Assembly (NCBI RefSeq): GCF_030684315.1
Contig: NC_081396.1
Span: forward strand, 3,844,001 to 3,908,000
Direction: 5' to 3'
From: Stegostoma tigrinum
Taxonomy: Eukaryota
Length of the DNA: 64,000 nucleotides
Both the position numbers and the translations under genes were made by a program. Numbering within the stretch: the first letter of the stretch is position 1; each line of letters starts with the position of its first letter. Of the stretch, positions 1,147-64,000 are shown piece after piece. The notes beneath the pieces were generated by a model that searched no databases, was not told the origin of the DNA, and saw only the letters and a program-made list of their open reading frames with translations.

Positions 1147-3329
1147 CCGATTATCTCACATTCGACTGCATCTTCTCTTCGACACAAAGCCCAAAGCAGG
1201 TCCGAGCATTCTATCTGTTTTGTGACGGGTGATTGTGTAGCTTTAACAAGGTGGAGAATTTCATAGAATTGTACTGTCCGAGAAAGCCTTTCAGTCTAAC
1301 TTATTTGCACCGAGTAGAGATCCCAAGCTAACTTAGTATGACTTGGAAGCATTTGGTCCACATTCCTCGAAATTCTTCGCATTCACAGACCCATCCAGGT
1401 TCATTGTAAATGTTGTCATTCTATGTATCTACATCATTTCCTCTGACAGCCCGTTCCACAGACGCAGCACCCTCTGCCTGAAAAAAATACCCTGTAGATC
1501 CTTTTTAAAAATTCCCCTCCCGCCTTAATCAAATAATCTCGAGTTTTGGGCTCACACACACCAAAAGGAGTCCTTGGAGATTCAACCAATCAAAGCCCCT
1601 TGAGATTTATAAATTTCAATAAGGTCATCTCTCAGCCTCCGATGCTGCAGAGAAAATGTCTATTCAGCCCTTGCCGACAGAAAAAATTCTCCAGTTCCAG
1701 CACCATCCATGCGAATCTTAGCTTCATTCTCTCAAATTCCACTATTTTAACAAAACCCTCCCGATATAATTCCCAATACAATTGTATGAAGTATTCCAAA
1801 AGTGCCCACATGAATGTCCTATGAAGTTGCAACATGACATCACAACTCCTGCACTAAAGTTCTGACCAATGATGCCAAATGTGCCAAATGTCTTCTTCTC
1901 CTTACAGCACAGAAACAAATTTGCCAGACCGACCATTCCTGAAGACCATAACTCCAATGTAAAGACGTGCAGACACTTGGCCAATATCCGTCCAAATCTT
2001 TCTGATTCACGTTCACGTCCAAATGTTTCCAAATCTTTTAACTGTGCTAGTATCGACCACTTCCTCTGGGAGTTCTTTCCACAAATGAACCAATCTCTGT
2101 GTAAAAGAAAATGCCCTCGTTTCGTTTCTAAATCTTTATCCTCTAACCTTAAAAATATGCAAATTGGTCTTGGAACACCAAAAAAGGGAAAATATACCTA
2201 TTGTTCACCTTATCTATACAGGTCATGATATATATTTAAAAAAAAACAAACTTTAGGATCACCCCTCAAACATCTACAGTCGAGAGATAAAAGCCACAAT
2301 CTATTCAACTCCTCCTTATATCAAAATCTGCAGTTCCAGAGCATGAGATAGCTTTGGCAAAAGTTTTTCAGGAGGATACAGGGTGATTTCACAAATGCAT
2401 TCAGGACACCAGATTAACTGATGAGACATTAGGACCTTAAAGTTCAGCAAGGCCATCTATGTGCGGAACCGCACATGAGGGTCAGAAGAAGGTCGCCAAA
2501 TTTGGAGTGTTTCAACTACAAGGAGAGTCTGAATAGGCTGGGTGTATCTTCCGTGGAACTTCGGAGGCTGAGGGGTGAACTTACAAAAGTTTATTAAAGC
2601 ATGACGGAGATGTGTATCATGAAGAGCCAACGTCGTTTCCCCGCTGTCAGAGTGTAAAAAAAAAACAAATGGTGTAAGTTTCAGTTCGGAGCACACAGAT
2701 TTGGAAGCGACAAAAGGAGCAACTCTTACCCGCAGAAGTGGTGCATGGACAGAATGAAGTGCTGGAGGAAGTGATTGAAGCTGGTGTCATTGAAACCGTT
2801 AAAATGTATCAGAATTGGGAGATAATAAGACTGTTTCAATGGATGTCGGCGAAATGCTGGCAAAGAGACTCGATTAATTTAGAATATTTGATCAGCACAG
2901 ACGAACTGGACTGAAGTGTCTGCTTCTGTGTTGTCCATTTTTAATCAATCTATGACTTTATACAGTCTCTCCCTATAATTCAAATCTTCAGTTCCCACAA
3001 TATCCTGATAAATCATTTCTGCATCCTCTCCAGCTTGATAACATACTTCCTATAATAGGGCGACTAGAGCTGGATACAGTCCGGCAGAAGGGTCCTCATC
3101 AATCTCCTGCAGAAACTCAATATCGGATTGTGACTCTGATATTCAACAGTCTGAGAAATGAAGGTATGCATGCTTAACGCCTTCTAAACCATTCCGACAA
3201 CATGTGAAACAAACTTCAAAGAATAAGTCTCTTGGTACTAAAATACGACATAAAGCACCAGTGTCACTCAAAACATGTCATGACTCAGTTGTTTTACGAA
3301 AGCACAACACATCACATTGAAATAAAATG

Positions 3330-5340
3330 AACATGGAACATAGAACAGCTGTGACAGGCTCTTCAGCCCATGATGTTGTGGCGACCTGTAATACCACTAA
3401 GATCAATCTACTCTGCATACCCTCCATTTTATTCTCCTGTATGCACCTATACAAGTGGGGGTCAAAAGTTTCCAGAGTGTCTGACTCCACTACCACTGTT
3501 GGAAGCAAATTCTCCATGCTCCTCACTCTCCATTTGAGAAATTACCTCTGATGTCTTTCTTACCTTCCTCCAATCGCCTTAAAATTATGTCCCCTCATAA
3601 TCATCATTTTCGCCATTTGAAAAATAAAATGTCTCTGACTATCCAGTCTATCTGTGCATCCCATCATCTTGTACAGCTCTATTAAGTCACCTCTCGCACT
3701 TCTTCACTTCAATGGAAAAAAAGCCCTTGCACCCTCAACCTTTCATCATAAGATCTGCCCTCCAGTCCTGGCAGCATCCTGGTAAGCCTCCTCTGCACCC
3801 TCTCTAAATATTCCACATCTCACCAGTGCTGCGGTGGACCTGAACTGAACACAATACTCCAAATGGTGTCCAAACAGAACTTTACAGAGATGCAGCATGA
3901 CCTAACATTTCTTGAACACTAGCCCACTGCCAATGAACACGAGTACATCACGCACCTTCTTTGCAACCCTATCAATTTAAAAGCAACTTTGAGGGATCAA
4001 TGGCCGTTGGCCCCAATATCCCTCTGTTCCTCCACACCGCTGAGAATCCGGTCATTATGCTTGTAATCTGCAGTTAAATTCTATCTTCCAAAATGAATTA
4101 CTTCACACTTTACTGGTTTGAATTCCATCTACCATTTCTTTGCCCAGCTCTGCATTCTGTCAATGTCCCGTTGCAACGACAACAGTCCTCCATGCATTCC
4201 ACAGCCCACCAACCTTCGTGTCATCGGCAAACGTATTCAGCCATCCTTCCACTTCCTCATCCAAGCCATTTGTAATGATCACAAAGAGCAGGTCTCCCAG
4301 AACAGATCCCTGGGGGACACCATTGGTCACCGAGCTCCAGGCTGAATACTTTCCATCTACTAAAATATTCTGTCGTCTCTTGGACAGCTAGTTTTGTATC
4401 CAGCCAAACAGATGCTCCTGAAACCCCTGCCTCCTTACTCTCTGAATGAGCCTACCATTAGGAATATTGCCAAATGCCTTGCCAAAATCCATATACACCA
4501 CATCCATTGCTCTACCTTCATCAATGTCTTTTTTTTCACATCCACAAATTATTCAATAAAGTTTTTCAGGCACCGCGTGCCCCTCACAAAGCCATGTTGA
4601 CCACATGTAATCGAATTGTGATTTTCCAAATATCCATAAATACTATCTCTGAGATTCTTCTCCAATAAATTGCCTACCACAAAAAGAAGCCTGGCCGGTC
4701 TGTAATTTCCAGATTTATCCCCATTCCCTTTGTTGAGCAAGGGAATGACATTTGCCACCCACCAATCATGTGGCACTGGTCTAGTGGATAGTTAGGATGC
4801 GAAGATCATTGTCAAAAGGGCAGCAATCGCTTCCCTTGCTTGCTGTATATACCTTTGGTTATATCCCTTCTGCCCCAGGAGACTTATCTGTGCTCATGTG
4901 TTGCGAAACTTCCAGCACATCCTCCTTCCTAACATCACCCTCTTCGAGCATATCTGCCTGTTTCATGCGATATTCACAAACTTCAACGCCCCACTCAGTG
5001 GTAAATACTGAAGCAAAATACTCATTAAGAACCTCGACCACCTCCAGGTGCCTCCATGCAAAGTTTCACACCACTATCCCTGAATGACCTGACCCTCATT
5101 CTGCCGATTTTCTTCTTCCTGATATTAACGGAGAAATCCTTTTGGTTTTCCTTGATCCTACTTGTCAATGTTATCTTGTACATGGTTGAAACTCTCATAA
5201 GTGCATTCTTCGATTCCTTTCTGGCTGCCTTGTAGACCTCGACAGCACCGTCCGACCGTTGCCTCCTAAACATGAAGTCATTTACCTGTTTAAAGTCTGG
5301 TTTCCACTCCTCAGTCCACCGACCCAATTAATCAAGATAT
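3330..5340 (-). mobile_element. CR1-family LINE, degenerate ORF2 (RT region) and 3' end
   Basis: Minus-strand ORF pieces such as DWWVANVIPLLNKG..PGNYRP..QHGFVRG and EVLNEYFASVFT..KSPG; CR1-type 3' tail (acatagaaca) near 3330. Confidence 0.9.
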
Positions 5341-7660
5341 TTTTGTCATCATGGATTTTGTTTCACTGTCATTTGTAAGACCAATTTTGGTGTCAACCGC
5401 AAACATACTAATCATGCCTTCTATATTTTCATCTAAGTCTTTTATATTCATGATGAACAAAAGAGGACTCAGAACTGAACCCTATTGTACACCTCTTGTT
5501 ACACACTTCCATTCCGAAAAACAACCCTCCAATGACGTGTCGAGACCCGAAAAATCAGACTTCCTGCTCTTCTTATGCTGCTTGGCCTGCTGTGTTCATC
5601 CCACTCTGCACCTTGTTATCTCCACGACCATGTTTATCTTTTGCCATTAAGCGAATTTAATACCAAATTGGCAACCTTAGACTGAATCCATAACATAACG
5701 ATTAGGTCTACTGAGCGGAATTTTGTCAAAGGTTTTATGAAAGTCCAAGTAAACACAATCCACTGCTCTGCTCCGTGAATGCATTTTGTCACCTCCACAA
5801 TAAACTGAATCAATATTATGGGGCAAGATTTTCCACCCAAATATCATGATGACTATCTCTCATCAGTTTTGGCTATACCAGATGCATGCAAATCCCATCC
5901 CTCAGAATCCAACAACTCACCCATTGCTGTCTTCAGGCTCACCAATCTGTAGTTCCTTAGATTTTTCATCTTGTCTTTCCTATTTAAATAGTAGCACAAC
6001 ATAAGCCACACTCCGGTCTTCCTGCACCTCACCTGTGGCTGTCGATGGTATGAATATCTCAGTAAAGGGCCTCGAAATCTCTTCCCCATATTCAGATTAA
6101 GCTCTCCGGAGCACGTTATCATTTCCCTAGTTTCCCAGCTCCCGAGATTCCACTCCTCTCTCCACAGTAAAATCCGACCCAATATATTTGTGTAGAACCT
6201 CACCCATCTCCCTTGGTTCCACGCATAGACGGCCACGTTGATCTTTAAGGGTCTCCATTTTTACCCGAGTCACTGAATTGCCCGTAATGCAATCAAAGAA
6301 ACACTGAGATTCTCATTATCTTCATTTACCATTCTGTCTAATGTCCACCTTTGCCCTACTACGATGCCTCTCAGGTATACTATTTCTGCAATTACACTCT
6401 TCTCAATATACACTCGATCCAAGCTATCCATACCTCATGATTGCCTTCATTTAGTCTGCTAGAGACACAAATTCTCTACTCAGACAGCATTCCCTACTCG
6501 AACAGCCTTACCCTTTGCACAAATAGGTACGTCCTGGAGCTGAACTGCCGTTATCTCATCCTTAAAGTTCTCCGACTTCCCAAACATTCCTTTAAATTTG
6601 AATATCTTCTCTCAATCAATTTCGCACAGCTCCTGACTCAAACTATCAAAATTGTCCTTACTCTAATTCAGAATATTATTTTTGCGCAGTTCTCTCGTTT
6701 CCCCTAATTCTTTTAAAACTGATATAATTATAGTCACTAGCCCAAGTGTTACCCTCCACATAGACTTTAGTCAATTGCCCTGCATTACTTCGAAACAGAA
6801 CGTCAAGGAAAAAAATCTCCAGTTGGTACAACCACATATTGAATAAGAACGTTTTCTTGTGAATAGTGTCACTTTCCTCCACGTCCAAGCTCTCAACTGT
6901 GTGACAGTCTCATTCTGTGTTTGGAAAGTTAAAACCCTCTCCCATTATGCTATTTTTCTTCCAGATATCCGAGATCTACTCGCATATTTGCTTCTGATTT
7001 TCCCACACACTGTTGGGAGGCCTCTAACACACACCAAATAAGATGATCATCCTTCTCTCATTTTAAAATTGACCCACATCACTTCACGAGCCGGTTTCAC
7101 AGCAATACATCCACTTTGTATAACTGTAACGTTCTCACAAAATAAAAGCGCCACTCCCCCTTCTGACATGCTTCCCATTGTCTCCTTCCTATAGCCGTAC
7201 ACCTGGAACATCAACTGCCAGTCCTGTCCATCTCTGACGCAGTTTTTCTAATTGCAATCTTCCCGAAAATACCTTAAGCCTATCTGTATTCTCTGTCAGT
7301 CCTGTTGCTTTCAAATAACAATGGTTTCATTAATTCGTCTTACTTTGTCTTTGTCAATGCCTTGTCGTTATTGACTATTCAATTGCTCATATTATCTACT
7401 GTATTGGTTTCAGACTTACTCTTTTCTTCCTATCGCTTTGGTTCCCACCACTGCCATACCATTCCCTCAACTAAAATAAAGCATCACAAACAGTGTAAGC
7501 CCATACCGCTTCAAGGATATTGGTTGTCTTCCATTTCGGCTGGTAACCTTCCCTCTTACACAGATCATTTGTACCACTGAAGAGATCCCAACGGTCCAAA
7601 AAGTCAAAACTTGTCCCCTGCAAGACATCGTGAGCCACACAATCATATGCCCTATCCTTC
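5340..7660 (-). mobile_element. CR1-family LINE fragments (ORF2 endonuclease/RT, ORF1 end)
   Basis: Motif KNLRNYRLVSL and frameshifted RT/EN remnants; the same block is present at about 60310-62650. Confidence 0.8.
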
Positions 7661-7719
7661 TACTCCTACGCTCAAAGTTACATTAGATAGGAAATAAAGC
7701 CTAACACTAATTTCGCCTT

Positions 7720-9360
7720 CCTTATAAGTGATTGTTAAATTTAAAAAAGTTAGATTTTCTTGTGATTTAAGGACGAGCACACGCAAATCTGTTGTGTTGA
7801 TTTCTCAATTTATTTTTATTTAACTAATATTTAACTGCTATATTTTTGCTCTCAAACTGCATAACCTCAACTTTTCCATTTATTCTCATTCTTTTCATCT
7901 CTTCTGCATTAATATGCCAAGTTTATTTTTTGAAAACTTTGTGCTGACTGTCACGTCCTGTCTATGTCCCTCAGCTTTTTTGTGCCATATTCACCATTTA
8001 GCTTTTCTGATTTTTTTGTTTTATTTGTAAACTTACCGAAAACATACTGACTTTTCTCAACTCAGTCATTGTTGTACCTTTCAAATATTTGTGCACCTTG
8101 CACTGATTCTTGTGACGCTACATTAGTCAGACGTTGACATCCTATAAAATAAAATTCTTCATCTAAGTGTCTTTCTGCTTTGATTTTGGCAATCCTCTGT
8201 CCAGGCTACTGCACGACCTCCAAAGCCATGGGCTCTTATCTGGTTAAGTTATCGTACGTGTGGCACCATATCTAATGTCTTTGGAAAATCTCCACATATT
8301 GCAAGAACTGAACCCTCCTTATTTTGTATTCTACGTTGTCACATCTTTCTATGTTATTTATTAGGCGAAATTTCAATTTCATGAAACTCTTTTCTGTCCT
8401 CTTGATTATGCTATGTAATTTTTAAACGCAATGTTGTTACATTTTCCCCAGTAATGATGTTCAGCAAAGTGACTTTACTCACCCTTTATGTTGTCTTTTT
8501 TTAATAAAGGTGTTATCCAATCATCAGGGACTTTTCCAAACTTAAATGATTGCCGTATAGTTAAATCCACTATGTTGAACGCTTCTGCCCTTATTTATTC
8601 TTTTTTTAAAATCCTCAATCGGATCTCATTAGTTGCAATGTAATTAGTTATATTTAGTCCTATTGATTTATCTGCTCTTTTTCGCAGTGAAAGTTTCTGC
8701 GTTGTATTCTTCACCTTTTATTTTTGCCCTTTCGTATTTAGCCATTTTGGAATGCTAGTGTGAAGTGAGATGCACGGGATTTTTTCAACTCGCCTGTCTC
8801 ATTATGGTTCCTAAACATTCATCCCCAGCTCCATTCAAGAGGAGGCTCTGTTCATTTTGGCCTATCTTTTCCTTTCAATACATTTAAGGAAGTTTCTGCT
8901 GTCCGTTTCAATATTACCTGTAATTTTTCGTTCAATGTTTACCTTCTCACGCTTCATTAATTTTTTGCTTTCCCTTTGATAGTTTTTTAAACTTCCGTAA
9001 TACTCTCTGTAGCAATAATATTTATGACATTTCAAGTTATGTCTTTTTATTCATTTTTTGCTGTCTTTAACTTCCCTCCTTAACCATAATAACTTGACTC
9101 CTTCCTATAATTCTCCCATCTCACTGGGATATACCTTTTCTCTGAGCCATGAAATATGAAAATCTTAATGCATGCTATTGCTCATCATAATTCTTCGCTG
9201 CTAAACTCGTTTGAAGTCCATTCCAGCCAGCTCTGCCCTCATTTCTTTATAATTATCCTGATGTACGCTTGTATCCAACACAAATTTCTGTCTCTCCAAC
9301 TGAATACTAAATTTTGTTGTTCCCACCTAATCATAGAATCTGTCATTATTTACTAAAATT
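7720..9360 (-). mobile_element. Old CR1/L2-like LINE ORF2 remnant
   Basis: The paralogous copy (62911-63135) translates as VASQESVFGAQ..DNDL..VVGKFANETRI, a decayed GVPQG/FADD RT region. Confidence 0.6.
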
Positions 9361-37323: not shown

Positions 37324-37605
37324 TGAGATGTTGTTGGGATAACAACGCATTGATTTCTATATTCTTGAGAAATCAATTGTTTTTATCTACTGGCACAGGG
37401 ATACACGGACACTGTCTTAAAACTTCCTTCTCGACTAGATTTAAGTGTGAAACTTTGTAAATCCTTATCTTCCAACACATAATTAGAAAGACACTGCCTC
37501 GAGATTCCTGCCTGAATAGAATTAGGTATAAGCTTTGTTAGTCTTTATCTTTCCGCACTTCGGTATGTGGAAACTGTCTCAAATAAGACTAAGTTGGGCA
37601 GCGTT
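37324..37605 (+). repeat. ERV 5' LTR (3' part and PBS apparently deleted)
   Basis: Aligns to 44935-45215; homology stops shortly after gaaactgtctcaaataag. Confidence 0.85.
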
Positions 37606-38094
37606 TCCTCAGGTAACTGGATTATCCGGGAGGTTAGAGTCCTTCAGTTGCCGGGGTTAGTGTGCCTAGGTCAGGTAAGTGGAAAGTCTGGGAGGTGAGA
37701 TTCCCCCGGTGGATGGGGTCAGAGTCCTTAGGCCAGGAAGTAAAACTGCCTTCGTAAGTCTTGGGGTGTTCGATTCAGATTGGAAAAGTAGGATAAGTCT
37801 TCAGACGTAGGTTTCGGATAGTTACAGTACCTGTCTGTCTCAACCACCCTGCCTCAGATCGGTTGTTCAGAGGGGAAATGCCCGACGCGAATGTTGGGTA
37901 CCCGAAGTGCGTGCTGAGACTAAGGAGACTGGTGTTGTATACAGAAATAAGTAAAAAGTAAAGGCACTAAAAATGGGACAAATGTTAGATTAGTCGGGTG
38001 TCGGAACCCTTTTTCATCGGTTTTACCAGGATGACCTCGAAGAGGATATACAGTACCGAAGTCTGTTGTAATGCCAAAACAAAAAAAAAGGAAA

Positions 38095-40093
38095 ATGAGA
38101 ATCGCCATTAGGTGGAACGTGGGATATTGATCTATGTGCTAAAGTACTTGAGGCAATATCGACACGTAATGCGGGAAGTAAATGGAAACGGTTGATATCA
38201 TCCCGGAAAAAAAAGAGAGCTGAAGAGCTGAATGAAACATCAAAAATGGCTAGTTGGGTGGAAAATGCACGGAGGAAAGGGATTAGTGCATGTGATAGTA
38301 AGGGAAAACCTAAACCTTGGGAGATTTTAACGCCGCAGTGTGAGGATCATGAAATGAATGAACATGGAAGAGTGAAACAGAAAGGCTGGAAAGGGAACGT
38401 TGGGTAAAAAAACGGGGATGAGAACTGCTGACAGAAGATAAAAAAATCGGAGGTAACTCCTGACATACCTGGCATGCCAATGTTTCTCAAAAAATAATGA
38501 CACAGGTAAGCAAGATGACGGGAACTGGGGAAGGCACCCCTTGTCCCATCGGGACTACTAACCCCTCCACAACTCGAACCATCCTTGATCAACCTACATC
38601 TGCAGGCGCCCCAATACCGCCATCAGTCTCAGGAATCGCCCGGAGCCCGATTACTGTTATTGCACGCTGACCACAAGAAACCTCCTACTACAGAATTCCC
38701 AAGTCCTTCAGAAATCAGTCCACGTGAACCTTCTGACAAACCCATGGCTTGGATAGGCTCTATTTCCTGTCATTGTACATCTGAGCCTAAACAGACAATC
38801 AGGAAACAAAATACGGAACAGACTACAAGTGGACAAAAGGAGTGGGGTGCATCACTCTTTTAAAACCCACAGGGGATGCCTGAAATAAATGTCAGCCCCG
38901 CATGCAGTTTCCTCAGCCCACGAGTTCCTGTCTTGTGTCACCTCGCGATGCTGCGAGTGGTGAGAGGGATGTTAGTTCCGATTCAAGGGCTGATGATAAT
39001 GAACCTGAGGACAGCGCTTGGGAGAGACCCTCGGACACCCCTCCCCGAAAGATAGACCCCCATAAAAGAAATCCACAATCTCTGAATCGTACGATCCCTC
39101 ACCTGAGCCCAACACAGGGGGATCAAAATACTATGCAGGCCAACACTCCTTGGAAGCTGCAGGAGATGTGTTTAATTATGCAAAGAGCCACTAATAGAAA
39201 GACTAATCCTGACGACTTCATAGGCTATGTCCTGAGCAGTATTCATATGCACCAAGGCACCCCGCAAGCCCTCTTTAGACTGCGCTGTATGGCTCTTACC
39301 CTCAGTGAATTTTCTCTGTGGAAAATCCCCCTGGGAGACCCAGCTCCCCAAGACTGGAATGCTTTTATAGGTCTTGTAGCTAAAGGTCTTAAGCTACTAA
39401 CCATTAAAGATCCCCTCAAGCGAACATTGCAGAAACCAGTAGATGTTCCCAGAGTGTCAGAGTGCAAATCCAAACGCGGGGAATGAGTTCTGGGAATGTT
39501 TCTGTTCCACATATGCCACCTACTCTGGTAATACTGCCTACTTTGCAGGGAATTCCTCACCACAGTTCAATGCTCTTTTGCTGCAGTGTATACCTGAGGC
39601 TGTGGCGGTGGCTATTCGTACCAATAACATGGATTGGCCAGATAATAACCGTCCTCAAGTGGGAAGGGCCTTAACTTATTAGCGGAAGGAATCCTTACTG
39701 ACCAGAGTCACATATGACATGGTGTAGCATCACCTGTGCCAAGCCAGGTCCAGAAAACCAGCTCATCCAGCATTGGGCTTTCAATTAGTGAGGGCATTTC
39801 ACACAGAATCCCAATACTATTTTCCTGGCTGCGTCGACAATCATGGTAACGGTTTTGTCACTCATCCACACGGTCCTAATGCTCTTCACTATGGAGGACC
39901 ATATGCACCCGCTCCACCATTCCGGAGACCCAGTGCCGCTTTGCCGCGAGGCGCAACACCACACTCCAATGAGGGATGTTTTAACTGTGGCAGTTGGGAT
40001 CAGTGGATGAGGACTTGTGCTCAGAATCAAGGTCAAGGGAGAACACAAGGAAGAAGGCAACCCTTTTCCACTAATAATCCTTTTTCAGCCTGA
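38095..40093 (+). pseudogene. gag: ERV gag, frameshifted
   Basis: Pro-rich region, capsid-like PWKLQEM..NPDDF, CxxxxGE..FWECF..Y..YSG, and zinc knuckle CFNCGSWDQWMRTC. The start is approximate. Confidence 0.8.
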
Positions 40094-43000
40094 TGATCTT
40101 CACCCCATAATCTGCACATTTTAAAGAGAGATCCGGAGGATCAACCTATTGTTAATTTAACTGCACAAAGGGTAGCAAGTTCTTTTGTGATTGTTACTGG
40201 GGCCAAGACACCTATGTTGGATGCATCATGTGTACAGCAATATGGGTTTACACTCTCACCCGTCTCAGTAAGCCTTAATGGACAGACTGGACAGGCAAAT
40301 GCATACTCTTTAACAGAACCATTGGAAGTTCAATTTGGCCCTGAAAACTGTATTATTTATTTTGCCCAGACCCTCACTTTGGGAGTTAATTTAGCCGGGA
40401 CAGATTTGTTGTGCCTTCTTCAAACTGAAATTCTGTGTCCCAAGAAGGGCATTAGTGTCAAAAGTGACCCGATTATGCGACATTTTTGGGTTCATCGATC
40501 GCCACAATGATGGACAATTGACTTATCTCTGTGAGATATCACCCTTTTCCTCCAAATCCCTCGTCCTCAAGTTGACTTGTGTTATGACCCTACAGGGACT
40601 TCCTGTTAATTGGCTGGTATTTACCCCCTATCTCGGATCAAGTTTATCTGTCACTATTGTCGGGTATATAGAGGGAAAGGAAGAATCAGCGTTTCTGGCG
40701 GAGGTGCCACCCCATCTATGCCATGAATCCTTCCTGGTATTCCCTTACTTCACACTGGCTGTGAGCACCGGCTACAATGTCAAGTCCTTGGGATTTCTAG
40801 TGCACCTCTTGATCCCACAATCATACGTGGAAGTGAAGGGTTATTCAGCGCAGGTGGCTGATGGTCTCATTACATATTATAGTGAACATTTTCTTGTATT
40901 TGGGCCATTACGTCGCCACCATGCTCATCATAGTGCCTCTAAGGAGTCTTCTCCAGACCTGTGGTCTACTTCCACACCTGAGGTAGGATACACGCCGGTC
41001 ACCATCGTAGGAGTGCGCTTACCCTCAATACCTCAGTACCCCGTCAAACCTGAGACAGTGGAAGAAATAACCTCCCTGATCAAGTCGTTCCTCCAACCAG
41101 GTATATTGTTCCTTTGTCAATTGCCTTGCAATACTGCTATTCTGCCCCTCCCTAAACCCGGTCGCCAGGAATGGCGACTGGTCCAGGACCTCAGACAAAT
41201 ACATAAGATAGTGCGACCCTGACATCCGATTGCCCCTAATCCTGCCACTATGCTTAGCAACATCCCCTCAGATGCGTGTGTCATCACCGTTTTGGACTTG
41301 CAACATGCATTTTTCATGATTCCCTTGCATCAGGGGCCTTAATATCGGTTTGTCTTTTCCTTTAAAGGACAGCAGGAGACCTGGACATGTCTCCCCCAAA
41401 AGTTCATTCACTCGCCTGCCCTAGTTTCCCAGGTCTGGCATCACCAGCTCCAAGATCTCCGACTCTTGGATGGCTCCACTGTTATCCAATATGTTCACGA
41501 TTTGCTCTTAGCAAGCCCATCATAATCCAATAATGTTTTGGATACAAACAGCCTTTTGAACGCTCTTCAATCTTGGGCATATCTTCTGACCACTGTGAAG
41601 GTTACGTGTAATGAACAGCAGGGGCCGTTCCCAAGGATTCTGCTCAGCGCCTGGGAACAAACGCTCACCCCTCAGCGCATTGCTCTTATTCAGATGAACC
41701 ACGCCCATAACCCCAAAACAAGTAAGGGCCTTTTTAGGCTTGGTAAATTCTTGTTGACAGTGGTTCCCTACTGTCCCTTTGCTTTTAAAAAAAACTACCG
41801 ACCCCTTTAGCTTCTTGTAAAAACCCAAAAAACCTTCACCCTCTCTGACAAACAACAGTCAGCCTTTGCAGACTTAAAAGCAGACCTTGCGGCTGCCCCG
41901 GCTTTGAGAAGACCTTTACATGACAGACCTTTCCGGCTATATGTTAATGTTGTGTATGGGTGCACCACTGGGCTATTGACACAGACTCGTCGCATGGGCA
42001 AACAACCGGCCAACGACGACTCTACCTGCCTGGACTCTGTCGCACATGGGCGTACACCTTTGTTCCAAGATTCTTCTTGCAATTTATACTTCAGTCACTG
42101 CAGCCTCTAAAGTTACTCTCCACCAGCCACTTACTGCCGAAAACTCACATGCCATTGACGTCATCCTCTCCTCCCACCAGACTCAACACCTTACCCAGGC
42201 ACATTTTAGCTGCTACGAAGTCGCACTCCTTCACAATCCGCTCTTGACATTCTCTTTCTGCTTCACAAATAACCCAACCACGTTTTTGAGCACCAAACTT
42301 CGATGAGTTTTTAGCACACCTGCATGACTGCTTACGAAGGAACCAATTTCTAACATTTCTGCGCCTGTACATGATTGATGTCACGGATCCTTCTCCGGAT
42401 GTTATCCTGTTTGTTGATGGCAGTTCCTCCAAGTTCCCCTTGGGTAACACTCTGGATATCCAATTGTCGACGTTGCCTCAGATTAGATTCAATGGTGTTT
42501 GAGCCCCCAGTGTCCGCTCAGAAAGCAGAACGTTTTGTCCTTACTCTGCTTGCATCCTAGCAACAGGGAAGTCAGCGAATATTTACACAAACTCTCCGTA
42601 TGCCTTCAGAGTCAACCACAACTTTGGCCAGTTATGGTGTCAGGATGGGTTTTTAACATCTTCAGGTTCACCCTTCCAACATTCCTCGTTTGTTAAAAAC
42701 CCTCTCCAGACAATTCTCTTCCCTAACCAAGTGGTTTTTATCAAATGCGTTGCCCATGCCTCCGACGAATCTGGAGTTACTCAGGGCAACACTCGGGCTG
42801 ATCAGGCGGCCAAACAGGCAACTGCAGATCAAACCTTTATTGTGCCATGTACGAACAAGCAGGTGGGAAATCCAATGCCTCATTCGGACTAGATGGGCAT
42901 ACCAGAAATAGTCACTGTTCAACACCTACAGGGCGATGTCCCTGCTTCTGAAAAGGACATTCGGACGGTGCATGGATGTTCGTATTCTGCATCGTCAGGC

Positions 43001-44085
43001 CTTTGGCTTACCCTCGTCGGCCAAGTGTGTATACCTGTTGCTTTGTTACCAATGCTTGTTGACTGTCTGCATTCTGACACCTACGTTGGCAAAGAGGCAA
43101 TGAGTGGTATTATGCTCCGTACCTTGTGGCACACCCGACTGGCTGAGGCACCCGCCCCCCCGTCCCAGTCTCAAAGACCATCATTTCTCACATGCAAGCA
43201 AAACAATTTTGGTCTGGGGGAGACGTGCTCACCAGGAAAAAAAATCAGGTGGACCGTTTGAATGCATTTAACTGGATTTGATTGAATTACCTCGTGTAAT
43301 TAGTTGTAAGTATTGTCTTGTCATTGCAGATTCATTCAGTAGGTGGAGAGAAGCTTTCACACTGACACAAAACAAAGCCTCAACAGTAGTGAAGTTATTA
43401 TTAATTGAAATAATGCCAAGGTTAGGAGTGACTCGACAATTTAGTTCTGTCAATGGCATCACTTTGTAGGAAAGATTAATAAGGAACTGTGTGATACGTT
43501 ATGCATCCAGCAGCAATTTCAACGTTCATACCAACCCTCAGTGTCAGGGATAGTGGAAAAAGAGAATGGAACGCTCAAAGCGAAATTGACCAAGTTGATA
43601 TTAGAGACTGGCCTGAGCTAGTTAAAGGTTTTGCCGCCAGCTTTGCACCACACGCGAATAACACCCTATTCTCAGACTGGACTCACAGCAACAGAAATCG
43701 CCTGTGGCTGACCCAGCAAAACACCTTGGGATGCCAATACCAGCCCACCCACCCAAATTGACTTGAATGTTGTGGGAGAAGAAATGCAAAGGTATTTCCT
43801 GCAGCCAACATCGTCTCCAAAGATTCTCCATTCACTGGTGAAGCTGGTGAAGTGTACCATTGGAACACCGTTGCAGGCACTAGACCAAGACCTGAAGCAC
43901 TAGAATCGCTCTTCATGATGACAGATTGGAGATTTCGTACTTGTCCGAGATTGGGATCACCCAAATCTTGGGTGGAGGTGGAACGGGCCATTCTTAAAAC
44001 TCCAACAGCTCTATAAGTTAAAAGACAGAATCACTGGATCCACCTCAGTAAATGCAAAAGACAGATTCCCTCTTCCCCTTGCAAT
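40094..44085 (+). pseudogene. pol: ERV pro-pol (protease, putative 2H domain, RT, RNase H, integrase), disrupted
   Basis: PR: IVTGA (decayed DTGA) and NLAGTDLL. RT: PQYP, CNTAILP, WRLVQDLR, LDLQHAFF, LPQKFIHSP, YVHD (41490-41501). RNase H: LFVDGSS, AQKAE. IN: DLIEL..LVIADSFSRWREAF, SGIVEKENGTLK, RWNGPF, WIHLSKCK. Confidence 0.93.
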
Positions 44086-44089
44086 TCAC

Positions 44090-44880
44090 CATTTGAATGA
44101 GGATTATTCTGACAGTGCATGTCCAGCAAACAATCTGTTGCACAGAACACACGTCCAACTGCACGGGAATCAGACAACATGTTACCTGCTACCAGGCAAG
44201 AAGGGATTCGTTTTCCTTCTTAATGAGACCTTCACGATTGCCACTAAAATTTTGCTGGTGCTGTTTGCTGTTGGGGCCATTGGGCGCCTCATGGTCTCTT
44301 GTCCCCAATGAGCGTGGATTCAATGGCGAATTGTCACACGCTTCCTGAGCCTGTAGTTTTGCGATGCATGGCAGGATCCAATTGCCTTGGGCTCTTCCTT
44401 GTGTTATGGCTTCCTTGGAACTGTTAGCTTGGGAGGATCCCCGCGGTGGAGTTCGTAAATAAACCGAAATTACCTGAGATGTAGACTCACCACCCTGGGA
44501 AACAGCACAATGAAAGCATTGGAGGCAGTCAACCGAGAATTTGCCAAACTTCATCTCTGTGCTCAGTCAACCCGGTATGCAATGGACCATCAACTGGCTC
44601 AGCAAGGTGGAGAATGTATTATCATGGAGGACAAGTATATGACCAAGTTACAGATGAGTCCTATAGTATTACCCAGGATATGCAAGCCATACAATGGCAC
44701 TTGGAACAGTAGAGAGAGGGGCCCTGACCGGGGCAGGGTGGCTCTTTAGCATGGTTTATGGGCGGGTCTTGGGTCTCATACCTGCTACATGAGCTAGTTA
44801 TTCTACAAGTTGTCATAGCGTTTGCTGTGTGTTTATTGTGTGCCTGAAATCTTGATTCAGGCATGCGTTTGCCAGATCAG
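44090..44880 (+). pseudogene. env: ERV env remnant (SU largely missing; TM with immunosuppressive domain)
   Basis: ALEAVNREFAKLHLCAQSTRYAMDHQLAQQGGECIIMEDKY is a decayed QNR-ALD-LLA-QGG-C ISD/CX6CC region, followed by a hydrophobic anchor LVILQVVIAFAVCLLCA. Confidence 0.8.
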
Positions 44881-44934: not shown

Positions 44935-45342
44935 TGAGATGTTGTTGGGACAACATCCCATTGATTTCCACATTCTAGAGAAGTAAATGCTCTTTACCTG
45001 CTTACCCAGAAGTATGTGGACAATGCCTTCAAACTTCCTGCCCGACTAGAATTAGGTGTAAAACTTTGTAAATTCCAATCTTCCTACACATAGGTGGAAA
45101 GACACTCCCTTAAGCTTCCTGCCTAAATAGAATTATGTACTAACTTTGCCAGACTTTATCTTCCTGCGCAGGGGTATGTGGAAACTGTCTCAAATAAGTT
45201 GAGGTGTGTAGTGTTTGGAAACGTGTGAGACTTCTGAAATCCTGTAAAGAATGTAACTTCTGTTTCTGCTAAATGGGCCAGGGCACTGAATATTTTTTTT
45301 TTCAAGCCAGACACTTTGGCGTCTTGAAGTTACATTCTTTCA
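44935..45342 (+). repeat. ERV 3' LTR
   Basis: Follows the polypurine tract; TG start and candidate CA end at 45342; internal ~80-bp tandem repeat carrying cttcctgcc (ETS-like). Confidence 0.85.
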
Positions 45343-54495: not shown

Positions 54496-55859
54496 AATAT
54501 GAACGTGACTAAAACTCAATAAATAATATCAATTAATTTAAATTGCTGTGGCAGGTCCTAATGTCCTTTCAAGCATTTTTAATGGAAACTCTGACACGAA
54601 CTTTGAACTATGTTGAGTTCTTGGATATGTTTTGGTCAAAACGGATTAAAGTGTAATGAACTGAATGTTCAAAGTAAATCCAATTGCACAGAAGCGTTTA
54701 CTTAAGTGTGGCTTCAAAATATTCCTGACTGAATTCCTAACTAAAATTAAACTGATAAAATTCGAGCCCACTGTTTGGAAATAAATGGCATTTGTTGCAT
54801 TTAATTGTCAAGAAATTTGCATTCATTTCTGCTCACTGTCAACATTCTTAAAATGATCTTGTTTCGATATGAAACTTTCCGATAAATAACTTCGATCAAC
54901 TGCATTTGTCTCCATCAGCAGTTCTTTGTAGCTGCTGAAGCGTTTATGTAAATAAATGCAGAAATAGAACTCTCAGAATAGATTGTAGAGCAACAAAAAC
55001 ACAATTTATCCTTTCCCACAAACACAGCACACTCTTTGAATATGAATTGACGTGAATGTGTTTGAGCACACATTGTTTTATGAGTATACAATCAAAGTAA
55101 TATCAGTTTTCACCGTAAACCAAAACATGCATCTCGACTTGCAAGATACATTGGCACAGCCAATGCTTCTATCTCTGCCTTTGTATCTCTCTCTTTCGCA
55201 CTTCTCATCCGATTTTCTCGCCTCCATTCTTTGTTGTGTAACGACGTGTTTTGCTGATCCACCATCGGAAAATGTTTTCCTCCATAACATGAAGTTGATG
55301 TACAACTAACATATCCTCTCAGTCCAAGTAATGCGTCGATATTCGAGTCTCTTGAGGAAGGTTTTCTCGAAAATCTGTCTTTGTGTATCCAGCAATCTTG
55401 AATTGCTTAAAAGGAACGGATGGAGTGGCCTTTAAACAGGATCTAATCTGTCATGTGTTGAGAAGGTGAGGCTTTACTGTGATAGTGTTGAAATGGCTTT
55501 TCATTGTGTCTCATCAGTATTTCTAATAGCTGAAGAATGCTTGATGGCTCAGTGCACTGCACGGTTAATCTATTATTAATCTTTCCTGCATATCTCATGG
55601 AATGTTGAAAATTAAAGTGAATTGGGTATTTACTCCTTGTCGAGAATGTGGTGTACATGCCCGAGGAGTGTTTGCGTTAAAGGGAATGTTGAAAGCAATT
55701 CGACTCTGCATCTAAGTCAGATTATATTTGACTTGATTGTGTTAATCTGAATAAAATAGAGGAATATTTCTTCTCAACATACTGTGACCGTGCAATCACT
55801 ACCAGCATCTGATGCAACAATGTTAACACTTCTTTCACTCCTGCCATTGTTTCCTGGTT

Positions 55860-57208
55860 TCGCCATGTTTGATATCAGAAAAAACAGGGACAAATTCCCG
55901 CATCAAACTTTTACATTGCAGAGTTCGGTCTTGTGTTTGTAGAGCTACATGATATATGATATGTGTAACATGTGTACATTTCATGCCTAAAGGCCAATCG
56001 TGTGTGACATAGGTTAGTTTATGTGATTTTGATCTGCCTTTAACCTTATCTCTTAGTTTTGCTTTGTTTGACGAATATTCAACAACAGTAAAGGTATATA
56101 GGTTTAGTTGTTACATTCGAGAAAGGATGCAATCTCACCAAAGTGGGAGAGGGAAGACCAATGGATGATGCTAGGAGGAGTTTATTTTTCAAGAGGAAGT
56201 GTACGTGAAGAGCCTCATTTGTTCTTGTAAAACATGAAACTCAGGGTAAATATGAAACAGGATTATCATAATTCTCACTGGCCAACTGAGAGCAAATGTC
56301 ATTTTTAATGCCAGAAGAATTGGAACCAGAAGTAAGTATTCTTCCGATGGAGATTTTTCTTCCATTCAATGACATCATGGTTGAACATTTAATCCTCACC
56401 TCCACATTTCAGCCTTGACCTCACGTGCATTGATTCCATTACCGATTCAAAATCTGTCCCTTTTGCCCTTGAAAATACATAACAAACCAACCACAAATTT
56501 CTTCTACGGTAAAGAATTCCGCAGATTCACGATATTTTGGGAGTAGAAATTCTCAACTGCATTAAATTTGTGACCTCGAATTCAGAAACCATAACCTTTG
56601 CTCCTAAACTCTTTCACAAAAGGAAATAGCATTTCTAAAACAATAACACTCCTGAACACAAAGAAATACATCTTTCAGTATGTCAACATTCAATATTCTA
56701 CATTTTGTTGAGAACAGGCCCTGAAATACTCAACCTTCACTCACAAGACACTCCCCACATCCTCGGGGTCATTCTACTGAATCACATGTCGATGATCTCG
56801 CTTTCGACTGGACCTTCTCTTTGATCTAAGGCCCAAAGCAGGTCCCAACATTCCATCTGTTGTATGACGACTGCTTGTATAGTTTTAACAAGGTGTATAG
56901 TTTCACAGAAACGTATTATGAGAAGAAAACCTTTCAGGATAACTTATTGCACCGATGAGAGATCCCAATCTAATTGAATACCACTGGTAAGCATTTGGTC
57001 CTGATTCCTCTAAATTATTCGCTTTCATTTTGCCATCCAGGTTCGTTGTAAATGTTGTAATTCTATACATCTACATTACTTCTTCTGGCAGCCCCTTCCA
57101 CAGACGCAGCACACTTGGCGTGAAAATAAAATTAACCAGTCGATCCTTTGTAAACATTTCCCCTCTCACCTTATTAGAATGATCTCGATTTTCGTACTCA
57201 CACACACC

Positions 57209-57259
<51 letters not shown>

Positions 57260-60200
57260 CAGCTCACCCGTCAAACATCTACAGTCGAGAGATAAAAGCC
57301 ACAGTCTACTCAGCCCCTCCCATTGTTAAAATCTCCAGTTCCAGAACATGGGATAACTTTGTCAAACATTTTTCAGGAGAACACAGAGTAATTTTATAAA
57401 TGCACTTCGGACAACAGATTAGCTGGTGAGATATGAGGACCCCCAGAAGATTAGCAAGGTGATAGGCCAGAAGAAGGTTGTCAAATTTGGAGGGTTTCAA
57501 CTAGAGGGAGAGTCTGATCGGCTGAGACGATCTTCCATGGAGCGTCAGAGGCTGAGGGGTGAACTGATAAAGGTTTATTAAATCATGACGGGCATGGATA
57601 TAGTGAACAGACAAAGTCGTTTCCCCGCTATAGGAGTGTCACAAAAACCAAATGACGTAATTTTAAATTGGGAGCACAAAGATTTGGAAGAGACCGAAAC
57701 AGCAACTCTTACCCGCAGAAGTGGTGCACGGACGGAATGATCTGCCGAAGGAAGTGATTGAAGCTGGTGTCATTGAAACATTGAAAATGCATCAGGATGG
57801 GGAGATAATGAGAAGATTTTGTACGGATGTACGCGAAATGCTGGCAAAGAAACCCGATTAATTTAGAATATTTGATCAGCACAGACAAACTGGAGTGAAG
57901 TGTCTGCTTCTGTGTTGTTCATTTCTATCAATCTATGACTTAATACAGTCTCTCCTTATAATTCAGAACTTCCATTCCCACAATATACTGATAAATCATT
58001 TCTCCAAACTCTCCAGCCTGATAACATATCCCCTATGATCGGGTGACTAGACAGGATACTGTCCAGCAGCAGAGGACTCATCAGCCTCCCGTAGAAAGTC
58101 AATATCGATTTGCGCCTCCAATATTCAAAAGTCTGAAAAATGAAGGCATGCATGCTTGACGCCTTCTTAACCATTCTGACATCATGTGAAACAAACATCA
58201 AAGAATATGTCTTTCTGCACTAAAATACCACATAAAGCACCAGTTTCACGGTAAACAAAATGGCCTAGTTGTTTTACCAAAACACTATACCTTGAATTGA
58301 AATAAAAAGAACACAGAACATAGAACAGTACAGGACAGTACAGATCCTTCAGCCAATGATGTTGTGGCGACCCGTTTTCCCATTGAGATCAATCTACTCT
58401 GCACAGCCTACATTTTACTTTCCTGTATATGCACCTATCCAAGAGTCGCTCATAAGTTTCCAGAGTGTCTGACTCCACTGCCACTGTTGGAGGCATATTT
58501 TACGTGCTCACCACTCTCTATGTGAGAAATTACCTCTGATGTCTTCTCTATCTTCCTCCAATCACCTTACAATTATCCGCCCTCATAATAATTGTTTCCA
58601 CGTTGGGAAAAAAAAGTCTCAAACTATCCACTCTATCTATGCATCCCATCATCTTGCACACCTGTAATTAGTCACCTCTCAAACTTCTTTGCTTCCCTGG
58701 AAAAAGCCCTAGCTCCTCAAGCTTTCATCATAAGATATGCCCTTCAGTCCTGGCAGAATCCTGGTCAACCTCCTCTGTACACTCTCTGAAGATTCCACAT
58801 CTTTCCTGTGATGAGGTGGACCAGAACTGAACACAATACTCGAATTGTGGTCCAAACGGTGTTTTAAAGTGCTGCTGCATAATTGAACGGATGTTAAACT
58901 CTAGGCCCCTGCAAAATGAAAGACAACACATCACACACCTTCTTTACAACCGTATCAAATTTACAACAACTTTTAGGGAACAATGGACATGGACCCCAAG
59001 ATCCCTCTGTTCCTCCACACTGTTGAGAATCCTGTCATTATGCCTGCATTCTGCATTTAAATTCTACCTTTCAAAATGAATCACTTCACATTTTACTGGG
59101 TTGAATTCCCTCTACCATTTCTTTGCCCAGCTCTGTATTCTGTCAATGTCCTGTTGCAACATACAACAAAAGCCCTCCATGCTGTCCACAACCCACCCAC
59201 CTTCGTGTCATCAGCACACCTGTTGACCCACCCTTCCACTTCATCATCCAAGCCATTTGTAAAGATCACAAAGAGCAGGTCTCCAAAACGGATCCTTGGG
59301 GTATACCACTGGTCACCGAGCTCCAGGCTCAATACTTTCCATCTACTAAAATCCTCTGTCTTCTGTTGGACAACTAGTTTTGTATCCAAACAGCCAGGTG
59401 CTGCTGATTCCCCTGCCTCCTTACTTTTTGAATGAGCCTACCATTTGGATCATTGCCACATTCCTTGCTAAAATCTAGATATACCACATCCAATATTCTA
59501 CCTTCATCAATGTGTTCTTTTCACATCCTCAAAGAATTCAATAAAGCTTTTGAGGCATGGCGTGCCCCTCACATAGTCAGGTTGACCATTTGATATCAAA
59601 CTGCGATTTTCCAAATCGCCAAAAATGCTGTCTCTCAGACACTTCTCCAATAAACTGTCTACCACAGAAGAAAGGCTGACCGGTCTGTAATTTCCAGGAT
59701 TATCCCTATTACCTTTGTTGAACAATGGGACAGCGTCTGCCACCCTCCAATAATCTGGTACTGCTCCACTGGGCAGTTATGATGCGAATATCATTGTCAA
59801 AAGGGCAGAAATCGCTTCCCCCGCTTGCTGTTATAATCTTGGTTCTATCCCTTATGCCCCAGGAGACTTATCTGCACTCATGATTTTCGAAAAGTCCAGC
59901 ATATCGTCCTTCCTAACATCAACCTATTCGACCATATTTGCCTGTTTCATGTGATACTCACAAACCTCAACGATCCACTCCATGGTGAATACTGAAGCAA
60001 AGTACTCATTAAGAACCTCCGCCACTTCCAGGTGATTCTATGGACAGGTACACGCCACTATCCCTGAATGGCCCTCCCCTCAATCTGGCTATTGTCTTGT
60101 TTGTCATATAAACGTAGAAAGCCTTGTTTTTTTTTCCCTTGATCCTAATCGTGAAGGTTCTCTTGCACATGCTTGAAGCTCTCATATGTGCATTCTTCAT

Positions 60201-63200
60201 TTCCTTTTTGGTTACCTTGTAGACCTCAAGAGCACGACCCGACTCTTGCTTCCTAACCCATAAGTAATTTATCTGCTTAAAGTCGATTTGCCACTCCTCA
60301 GTCCACCATCTCATTCAATCAAGATATTTTAATAATCTTGGGTTTTGTTTTCACTGTCAACTATAAGACTTATTTTGGTGCCATCCACAAACATACTAAT
60401 CATGCCTTCTATATTTTCATCGAAGTCTTTCACAAAAATGATGAACAAAAGCGGATCTAGCTCTGAAACTTATTGCACACTACTGGTGACAGACTTCCAT
60501 TCTGAAAAAACAACGCTCCACTGAAGGGTCTAGACTGGAAACGTCAGCCTTTCAGCTCTTCTTATGCTGCTTGGCCTGCTGTGTTATTCCCGCTATACAC
60601 CTTGTTATCTCCACCACCATCTTTTTCTCCTGCCATTCAGCGAATTTAACATCAAATTGGCAACCTCACCCTGAATCATAACATAGCTAATAGGTCGACC
60701 AAACGGAAACTTGTCAAAGGATTTATGAAAGTCCAAGACAACACAATCTCCAGCTCTGCCCCGTCAATGCTTTTGGTCACTTCTACAAGAAACTGAATCA
60801 ATATTTTGAGGCAAGTCTTTCAACGCAAATGTCATGATGACTCTCTCTCATCAGTTCTTGCTCTTCCAGATGCATGCAAATCCTATCCCTCAGAATCCAA
60901 CAACTCACCCATTACTGTCTTAAAGCTCACCAGTCTGTGGTTCTCTGGATTTTCCATCCTGCCTTTCCTATTTAAATAGTAGTACCACATGAGCAACAAT
61001 CCAGGCATCCTGCATCTCACCTGTATCTATCTATGGTACGTACATCTCAGTAAGGGGCCCAGAAATCTCTTCCCCAGGTTCCCATAAAGCTCTAGGGAGC
61101 ACCTCATCATTTCCCTAGTTTCCTAGTTCCCAAATGTCCATTCCCCACTCCACAGTAAATTGCAACACAAAATATTTTGTCGAACCTTACCAATCTCCTC
61201 TGGTTCCACGCATAGACGGCCACGTTGTTCTTTAAGGGTTTCTATTTTTACCTAGTCACAGAATTGTCCTTAATGTAATTACACAAACATTGAGATTCTC
61301 ATTACTTCCATTTACCATTCTGCCGCATGTCCGCATTTGTCCTCCCAAGATGCCTCTCAAGTAAACATTTACTATAATTATATTCTTCTCAATATACGCT
61401 CGATCCAAACTGTCCATATCTCATAATTGCCCTCCTTTATTTGGCTGGAGACTCAAATTCCCTCCTCATCTAGGATTCCCTACACTGTGCAGCCTTACCC
61501 TTTTCACAAACAGGTAAGGGCTGGATCTGAACTCTCGTTATCTCATCCTTAATGTCCTCAGTCTTCCAAATCATTCCTTTTGAATGTCGTCTCCCAATCA
61601 ATTTCACAAAGCTCCTGCCTCAAGCTATCAAAATTAGCCACACTCTAATGTAGAACTTTATTTTTTGAGCAGTTCTCTCGTTTTCCTTAACTGTTTCAAA
61701 ACTGATAGAATTGTGATCACTTGCCCCAAAGTTCTCCACAAAGACTTCCATTAATTGACCACTATTACATCCAGACTGAACGTCAAACTAAATTTCTTCT
61801 CCACTTGGTACAACCACATATTGAATAAGAACGTCTTCTTGTACACAGTGTCAATTTCCTCAACATCCAAGCTCTCAACTGGGTGACAGTCTCATTCTGT
61901 GTGCGGAAAGTTAAAACCCTGTACTATTATGCTACTTTTCTTACAGATACCTGCGATCCACTTACATATTTGCTTCTGATTTTCCCACACACTGTTTGGA
62001 GGCCTCTGATAGAAACACAACAAAATGATCATTTTTCTCTCATTTTAAAATTGAACCAAATGACTTTATTGGCCGGTTTCACAGCAATATCTCCACTTTG
62101 TATAGCTGTAAAGGTCTCCCAAATTAAAAGCGCCACTCCCGCTTCTGTCTTGCTTCCCGTTTTGTCCTTACGAGAGACATACCTCTGGAACATCAACTGC
62201 CAGTCCTATCCTTCTCTGAGGCATTTTGTTCTAATTGAGATCTCCCCATTCATACCTTCAGCCCATCTGAATTCTCTGTCAGTCCTGCTGCTTTCAAATA
62301 ACTCTGGTTAAATTTATCAGTCTTACTTCGTCTCTGTCAATCTCTTGTTGTTTTTGACTCTTAAATTGCTCATATCACCTCCTGCACTGGTCTCAGCCTT
62401 ACTTTAGTCTTAGTATTGCCATGGCTCCCACCAATGCCATACATTCCCGTGACTAACTTAAAGCCTCACAAGTAGCGAAAACACATTCCCCCTCAAGTTT
62501 ATTGGTCCTCTTCCAATTCAGCTTAACCCTTCCCTCTCACACAGGTCACTTGTACCACTGAAGAGATCCCAATGGTCCAAAATGGCGAATCTTTTCCCCT
62601 GCAAGACACGGTCAATCACACAATCATGTGCCCTGTCCTTCTATTTCTGCTGTCAAAGTTACAGTCGATACGAAATAAAGGCCAACACGAATTTCGCCAT
62701 CCTTATGAATGGCTGTTAATTTAAAAAGTTAGATTTTCTTGTGATTTAAGGACCAGCACACGCAAATGTGTCGTGTTGATTTCTGAATTCATTTCATATT
62801 TCAATAATATTTTGCCACTCTGTTTTAGCTCTCAAACTGCATAATCTCACTTTTTCCATCTATTCTCAGTTATTTCATCTGTTTGGCATGAATATGCCAA
62901 GTTTTTATTTTCAGATTTTGCTGACTCTCAGGTACAGCCAATATCCCTCAACAATTTTTCTTGTGTCATATTCACCATTTCCCTTTTCTGATATTCTTGT
63001 TTCATTTGCAAACTTACCGACAACACATTGATTTTTCTCATGTAAGTCATTATCGTATCTTTCAATTATTTGTGCACCAAACACTGATTCCTGTGATGCT
63101 ACCTTCGTCAGAAGTTGACATCCTGTGAAGTCCAATTCTTCATCTAAATATATTTCTACTTTGAATTTGGCAATCCTCTGTCCACATTAATGTACTGCCT

Positions 63201-64000
63201 CCAAAGTCACGGGCTCCGAGCTGGTTAAGTTATCATACGTGTGGCACCGTATCTAATGTCTTCAGAGAATCTCAGCATCTTGCAAGTCCTGAACCCTCCT
63301 TCTTTTGGATTCTACGTTATCAAATATTTCTACGTTATTTATCAGGCAAAATTTCACTTTCATAAAACTATTTTCTGTCCTCTTGATTATGCTATGTAAT
63401 ATTGAAATGCACTGTTGTTACTTTTTTCAGTAAATGAAGTTAAACAAAATGGCCTTCCTCACCCTTCATGTTATCTTCTCCTTTTTAAATAAAGGTGTTA
63501 TCCAATCATCAGAGTCTTTTCTGAAATTTTATTACTGCTGTAAAATTAAACCCAGCATAACAAACGCTTCTGTCATTTTTTAAATCCTTGATTCGATCTC
63601 ATTATTTGCAATGCACTCATTCATATTTAGTTCAATGATTTAAGTGCTTCTTTTCCCCCAGTGAAACTTTCTTTGTTGTATTCCTCACCCTTATTTGGCC
63701 CTTCCATATTCAGTCATTTTGGAATTCTACTGTGAAGGCAGATGCACAGTATTTTTTCAAAATGTCTATTTCATTATTGTTCCTAAATATGCATTCTGCA
63801 GCTCCAATCATGAGGGCGGTATGTTCACTTTGGCCCTTCTTTTCCTTTCTATATATTTTTGGAAGCGTTTGCTGTCTGTTTTAATATTATCTGCAATTTT
63901 AATTTCAATATTTTCCTGCTCACGCCTCATTAATTTTTTGTTTGCCTTTTGATATTTCTTCAAACAATCTGAATACTCTCCTGACCTATCATAATGATGA
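55860..64000 (+). repeat. Segmental duplication copy B (runs off the window); contains CR1 fragments at about 58310-62650 on the minus strand
   Basis: Colinear with 1-9025. Lacks the 937-1146 insertion and about 670 bp corresponding to 1567-2230. Confidence 0.95.
57214..57252. repeat. (AT)n microsatellite
   Basis: Pure TA tract located at the site of the ~670-bp indel between the two copies. Confidence 0.95.

Follow-up and report, generated by a model that had tools for sequence, protein, structure and literature searches.

Remnant of a Pol two-histidine phosphoesterase domain, probably of CNPase-like fold, in an epsilon-like shark endogenous retrovirus

An endogenous retrovirus (ERV) of Stegostoma tigrinum contains additional codons between the protease and the reverse transcriptase (RT), and the question is what this stretch once encoded and what its product may have done in an active virus. 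The analysis was performed on a window of 64,000 nucleotides, i.e. the whole stretch of DNA under analysis, and all coordinates are positions within it. An earlier note, made from the sequence alone, had read the additional codons as a putative two-histidine (2H) phosphodiesterase domain with two decayed motifs. The stretch is almost certainly the remnant of a 2H phosphoesterase domain between protease and RT.

Layout and decay of the provirus

The provirus is about 7.9 kb in length, lies on the + strand and is flanked by LTRs at 37324-37581 and 44935-45192, which share 78.7% identity over 258 columns (K2P 0.25, alignment of direct repeat D9). Its features are as follows.

37324..37581, + strand: 5' LTR with TGAGA...TCTCA ends (direct repeat D9 and alignment; boundaries approximate)
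37974..40093, + strand: gag remnant, broken (translation; start approximate)
40124..40490, + strand: protease remnant, aligned to skate Pol P0005 from residue 9 on
40496..40606, + strand: N-terminal part of the 2H domain in the protease frame, with two in-frame stops and degenerate motif 1 at 40568-40579
40620..40925, + strand: C-terminal part of the 2H domain in the RT frame, with degenerate motif 2 at 40746-40757
40950..42294, + strand: RT and tether, interrupted by stops and frame breaks, YVHD replacing YxDD
42323..44008, + strand: RNase H and integrase remnants (Pfam RNase_H E 9.5e-9; MLVIN_C weak; tblastn)
44097..44850, + strand: env-like remnant, short and broken (boundaries approximate)
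44935..45192, + strand: 3' LTR, with a purine-rich tract just before it (repeat and alignment)

The gag remnant was matched by skate Gag-Pol model P0154 at 39118-39673 in tblastn and contains a zinc-knuckle-like Cys motif near 39977-40018. Pfam RVP was assigned to residues 15-107 of P0005, and the catalytic Asp position of the protease remnant is occupied by a residue other than Asp. The env-like remnant gave a weak Pfam Ebola-like HR1-HR2 match (E 0.08) at 44459-44746. When the intact skate Pol was used as a tblastn query, protease, RT, tether, RNase H and integrase were recovered over three frames from 40124 to 43792, and the element is heavily decayed, with stops and frame breaks in the translation along its whole length.

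One frame break sits between the two parts of the 2H domain (40496..40606 and 40620..40925). Two other samples of a single study supplied near-identical contigs that run across this break ungapped (11 differences in 750 nt, 4 in 373 and 9 in 697), so it is not an assembly error. The region 40050-41250 was covered by 215-234 contigs per run at an identity of at least 80%, and about half of them were less than 90% alike, which indicates that the sequenced organism harbours multiple copies of this ERV family. Elsewhere in the window, a large block at 1-8300 is repeated at 55800-63300, about 55 kb apart, with 78-86% identity; this probably reflects a duplication or a long mobile element that is present twice.

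The extra stretch and its intact relatives

PQVDLCYDPTG (from 40565) and PYFTLAVSTGYNVKSLG (from 40743) occupy different + frames and lie about 59-60 codons apart, just as the earlier note had placed them. In the window copy, 252 codons separate the active-site position of the protease from the start of RT. In an exhaustive phmmer search, the native downstream frame gave matches to 303 proteins at E<=0.001, and the best 150 of the 303 were used for the analysis; 149 of them align to the window RT, and 29 carry a D[TS]GA protease motif upstream. Among these best 150 of 303, the protease motif precedes RT by 101-131 residues in 19 of the 29 proteins and by 238-312 residues in nine, with the 2H domain in between (all nine sit in the profile described below, so that their match to it is by construction). 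Compared with the usual 101-131, the 252 codons of the window correspond to about 135 extra codons; the insert noticed earlier is thus real, while its size is nearer 135 codons than the roughly 150 first estimated. Since 19 of the 29 related Pol proteins among the best 150 of 303 are without the domain, retroviral replication as such does not depend on it. The form found in elasmobranchs is compact, with 238 residues from the motif to RT in skate and 252 codons in the window (40193-40950), compared with 290-312 residues in the other eight carriers; relative to the teleost form, it lacks about 60 residues at the N-terminus. Another insert of about 125 residues was seen between protease and RT of P0063 (Logan, 1320 aa; about residues 110-270), for which no match to the 2H profile or to Pfam was obtained.

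Among the matches listed, the nearest relative over the spacer is P0014, with 55% identity over 65 aa in the downstream half (E 1e-19) and 67% over 18 aa at the upstream motif (E 5.5e-4), and an intact HxT is present in P0014 at both columns where the window motifs are degenerate. The skate Pol P0005 is collinear with the window, the upstream frame being matched through protease and motif 1 (E 7e-16) and the downstream frame through motif 2 (E 4e-9). As relatives align across the spacer, the motifs are not chance occurrences. Two HxT/S motifs about 60 residues apart are present in intact natural relatives (P0014, P0005, P0083 and others), and both sequences that had been read as decayed PHxT align with their intact HxT columns. 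Intact copies, i.e. an uninterrupted 1225-aa skate Pol and also teleost ERVs, fit selection for catalysis.

A profile was built from 18 natural relatives, 15 of which were picked by the two-motif pattern, so the invariant histidines of this alignment are partly by construction; in rows outside the profile, HxT/S was found at motif 1 in three of the four covering rows and at motif 2 in six of eight. Searched against the six window frames, the profile gave one clear match at 40623-40823 (14.1 bits, E 7e-6), with -1.5 bits for the next best and 4.3 bits for the best of 30 shuffles, and by itself did not detect the short motif-1 piece. The window spacer pieces matched nothing in Pfam and gave a single irrelevant match (E 0.85) in the PDB sequence search; no longer relatives of the native frame were found among 721 candidates in the word-index search, and no relative of the window stretch was found in IMG/VR. 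Faint matches to the Pfam 2'-5' RNA ligase superfamily were obtained for two relatives (E 0.027 and E 0.0038), and the Pfam CNPase model matched none of 17 relatives at E<=1.

In the window copy, both His and Thr of motif 1 and the His of motif 2 are substituted; translation and alignment thus bear out the earlier statement that both histidines are mutated here. The conserved Gly 15 residues past the motif 2 His position is retained in the C-terminal part. The window copy does not have the two HxT/S motifs of a 2H protein and is a relic rather than a working member; with its histidines lost, its stops and its frame break, it cannot make the enzyme.

Predicted fold, second location and distribution

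In the profile search against the PDB, 25 sequences were returned at E<=10, of which 22 were weak matches to CNPase or goldfish RICH, the best at E 0.0043; the other three were Acb1 (E 0.4), penguinpox cGAMP PDE (E 1.1) and one unrelated protein. An AlphaFold model (pLDDT 79.6, pTM 0.73) was built for the natural stretch of the skate relative, the 18-row alignment serving as input; this relative is 27-29% identical to the window pieces, and the fold claim rests on it. The top PDB matches of the model in Foldseek were CNPase (E 8e-5, TMq 0.55-0.63). In a Foldseek-independent structure search with VIA over 48,161 chains, CNPase was matched at Z 12.7 (rmsd 2.7, 135 aligned), followed by rotavirus VP3 (Z 6.2), Acb1 (5.3), MHV NS2 (4.8), penguinpox PDE (4.8) and AKAP18/AKAP7 (4.5), and ranks 1-17 were all 2H proteins or 2H-containing ones, save 2fsq of unknown function. 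CNPase was therefore the nearest solved structure by both Foldseek and VIA, and the model was not nearest to the LigT/AKAP7-like 2',5'-PDEs (VP3 6.2, NS2 4.8 and AKAP18 4.5 vs 12.7). The intact relative is thus predicted to fold like CNPase, with the two lobes of a 2H fold. The intact motifs in relatives, the profile matches to CNPase in the PDB and this predicted fold together uphold the 2H identity first proposed from the decayed motifs. Two stand-alone viral proteins of about 153 aa in BFVD, A0A516LHL6 and A0A516LSI7, also matched the model at E 2e-6 and 8e-5, respectively.

When predicted viral structures were searched with Foldseek, the Env proteins of walleye epidermal hyperplasia virus 1 (WEHV1) and walleye dermal sarcoma virus (WDSV) were found at rank 1 (E 7e-8) and rank 4 (E 2e-5), respectively. 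The WEHV1 Pol (P0010) has no insert, with 114 residues between the protease motif and RT. IMGVR_UViG_638277100_000001 (L002; 12,708 nt, with a cyclin-like ORF), which we take to be walleye dermal sarcoma virus from its size and layout, contains an Env ORF of 1229 codons (L002:5962-9651) matched by the profile at residues 1028-1116 (iE 6e-11) with both HxT motifs intact, and its Pol gave no match to the 2H profile. When the walleye-type Env domain was used by itself as query against PDB sequences, no 2H protein was found. The Env domain lies beyond the last N-glycosylation sequon (775) and beyond the predicted membrane anchor, a hydrophobic segment at about 857-877 with basic residues after it, and appears to form part of the cytoplasmic tail, although additional hydrophobic stretches towards the C-terminus leave some doubt about this topology. 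In retroviruses, the products of Pol and the tail of Env are located inside the particle; both positions of the domain would accordingly face the virion interior, and we infer that the enzyme was packaged. The Pol-derived profile scored the Env domain at 30.8 bits and human CNPase at 18.5; this difference speaks weakly for a move within retroviruses rather than for a second capture.

A quick RT tree was constructed from 48 of 149 rows, namely those in which 195 or more RT residues are aligned. In this tree the window RT falls in a 7-row clade (SH-aLRT 100), whose five named members are proteins of the cartilaginous fishes Mobula, Mustelus, Amblyraja, Leucoraja and Callorhinchus, and the clade is nested in a 13-row group with WEHV1 (SH-aLRT 91). 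Among the matches listed, the nearest RT is that of a Mustelus protein (68% over 187 columns), in keeping with a shark or ray host. The window element is placed among epsilon-like fish ERVs, as its RT groups with fish class I elements in the quick tree and the domain lies in pol. The domain is patchily distributed on the RT tree (5 changes, 15 carriers), a pattern with which repeated loss and repeated gain are alike consistent; P0008 (Callorhinchus) was scored as domain-less in this count, yet seems to retain the C-terminal strands of the domain and may owe its form to a faulty gene model.

Candidate function and comparison with known systems

The proposal put forward here is that the remnant derives from a Pol 2H domain of CNPase-like fold in an epsilon-like retrovirus, which would have hydrolysed 2',3'-cyclic phosphates in the particle; taken as a whole, this reading has a little better than an even chance of being right. 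An active virus would have synthesized the domain within Gag-Pro-Pol, packaged it into the virion and probably freed it by means of the viral protease. There the domain would open 2',3'-cyclic ends on RNA, either the nicked genome or the tRNA primer, such ends arising from cuts by metal-independent host RNases, and the product would be a 2'-phosphate with a free 3'-OH; free 2',3'-cyclic nucleotides would be an alternative substrate. Two points favour hydrolysis of 2',3'-cyclic phosphates: no other structure comes nearly as close as CNPase, and this is the CNPase reaction, in which 2',3'-cyclic nucleotides are converted to 2'-nucleotides (passages of PMC5434554). That the substrates belonged to this class (RNA ends or cyclic nucleotides) is judged an even prospect or slightly above. 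The nearest fold does not fix the substrate, and 2H enzymes change substrates freely (PMC11410667, passages covered); the elasmobranch form, being about 60 residues shorter, may also have a pocket different from that of the teleost form. The earlier note had suggested either an antagonist of nucleotide-based innate immunity, by comparison with NS2 and VP3, or an RNA-end processing enzyme; the latter option is favoured by the CNPase-like fold, and the 2-5A comparison is the weaker one (Z 4.8 and 6.2 vs 12.7).

The main rival is destruction of cGAMP or related cyclic dinucleotides, whether packaged in virions or made by cGAS on sensing of reverse transcripts, by which STING would be blunted. Viral 2H enzymes that cleave cGAMP are described in the passages covered of PMC11410667 (T4 Acb1 and avian poxvirus PDE), and cGAMP is carried inside lentiviral particles (PMC10242147, in part); this rival would also suit the two interior-facing locations, the faint profile matches to Acb1 (E 0.4) and penguinpox PDE (E 1.1), and the scattered occurrence over the RT tree (5 changes, 15 carriers), as expected of a conflict gene. 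The structural scores of Acb1 (Z 5.3) and penguinpox PDE (4.8) are, however, far under that of CNPase (12.7), and cGAMP cleavage by CNPase-type enzymes was not found in the literature passages covered; the rival is considered rather unlikely. Equally doubtful is the proposal that a CNPase-type enzyme was captured by fish retroviruses, at the Pol junction and in the Env tail, as a packaged destroyer of cGAMP or other nucleotide messengers; if true, retroviruses would have their own equivalent of Acb1 and the poxvirus PDEs, drawn from another branch of the 2H superfamily. A role as 2',5'-phosphodiesterase, acting on 2-5A to block RNase L as NS2 and VP3 do, is improbable: these proteins belong to the same superfamily and VP3 is the second structural match (Z 6.2), but NS2 (4.8) and AKAP7 (4.5) score much below CNPase, and both histidines are kept in teleost ERVs, whose hosts are not known to have OAS-RNase L. 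OAS is present in elephant shark (PMC6307210, passages covered), and the known viral 2-5A enzymes come from eukaryotic LigT-like genes according to the part of bioRxiv 10.1101/2023.05.12.540623 covered.

Two readings in which catalysis is not the main role were also weighed. The CNPase-like domain may have been mainly a binding module or a decoy vs host CNPase, which binds Gag and blocks assembly of primate lentiviruses (PMC5434554 in part, citing Wilson 2012); the catalytic motifs are nevertheless conserved in the ERVs of both elasmobranchs and teleosts, as well as in the walleye-type Env, which pure binding does not require, and little probability is given to this reading. An ordinary linker with chance look-alike motifs would agree with the failure of the window pieces to match anything in Pfam or among PDB sequences. 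It is opposed by the collinear homology to intact relatives, by their predicted 2H fold and by the shuffle control, and was refuted by the alignment to relatives and the structure search, leaving it a vanishingly small probability.

Domains of this type in fish retroviruses, which the earlier note had mentioned, are already in print: a retroviral 2H domain is reported in PMC9503650 (section 3.4.5, citing Mazumder 2002), and CNPase-encoding epsilon-like ERVs of ray-finned fish in PMC4977317 (citing Basta 2009), both in the passages covered. The shark ERV paper PMC4422223 contains no mention of CNPase, phosphodiesterase or phosphoesterase; 'retrovir' does not occur in the main text of two recent viral PDE papers, whose supplements may bear on the matter; and no functional test of a retroviral 2H domain was found in the literature searched, mostly outside subscription papers. 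The domain type is thus known, and the window copy is a further, dead example; added to the prior reports is the presence of the domain in the Env of a walleye-type virus without a Pol insert. A single dead copy matters little by itself. The domain family matters more, with both catalytic histidines conserved across retroviruses of cartilaginous and bony fishes, in Pol or in the Env tail; it bears on whether RNA ends are repaired or nucleotide immune signals disarmed by these retroviruses, and might illuminate the physiological substrate of host CNPase.

Compared with known systems, the best profile and structure match is to CNPase and fish RICH (2xmi, 1woj, 2i3e), with which two HxT motifs are shared. 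CNPase has an N-terminal kinase-like domain, for which there is no room in the retroviral domain; the identity to CNPase is only 9-13%, and the retroviral domain comprises about 140 residues vs about 215. The spacing of CNPase is kept at two positions, namely an aromatic residue at His1+5 (H230/F235 in CNPase, PDB titles) and a Gly at His2+15 (H309/G324, PDB titles), the latter also in the window, whereas R307 of CNPase (two residues before His2, PDB title) has no counterpart. The virus-encoded 2H fold is shared with rotavirus VP3 (4rpt/6o3v), MHV NS2 (4z5v), Acb1 (7t27) and penguinpox PDE (9bkq), but these viral 2-5A and cGAMP PDEs reach only Z 4.8-6.2, about half the CNPase score, and are a separate capture from the retroviral domain. 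With the ray-finned fish ERVs of Basta the window element has in common its epsilon-like character and a CNPase-like domain, which in the teleost relatives found here likewise lies between protease and RT; it differs from them in its cartilaginous-fish lineage, in its form, about 60 residues shorter, and in being a dead copy. The walleye-type virus has the domain in its Env tail and no insert in Pol, whereas the window element carries it in Pol.
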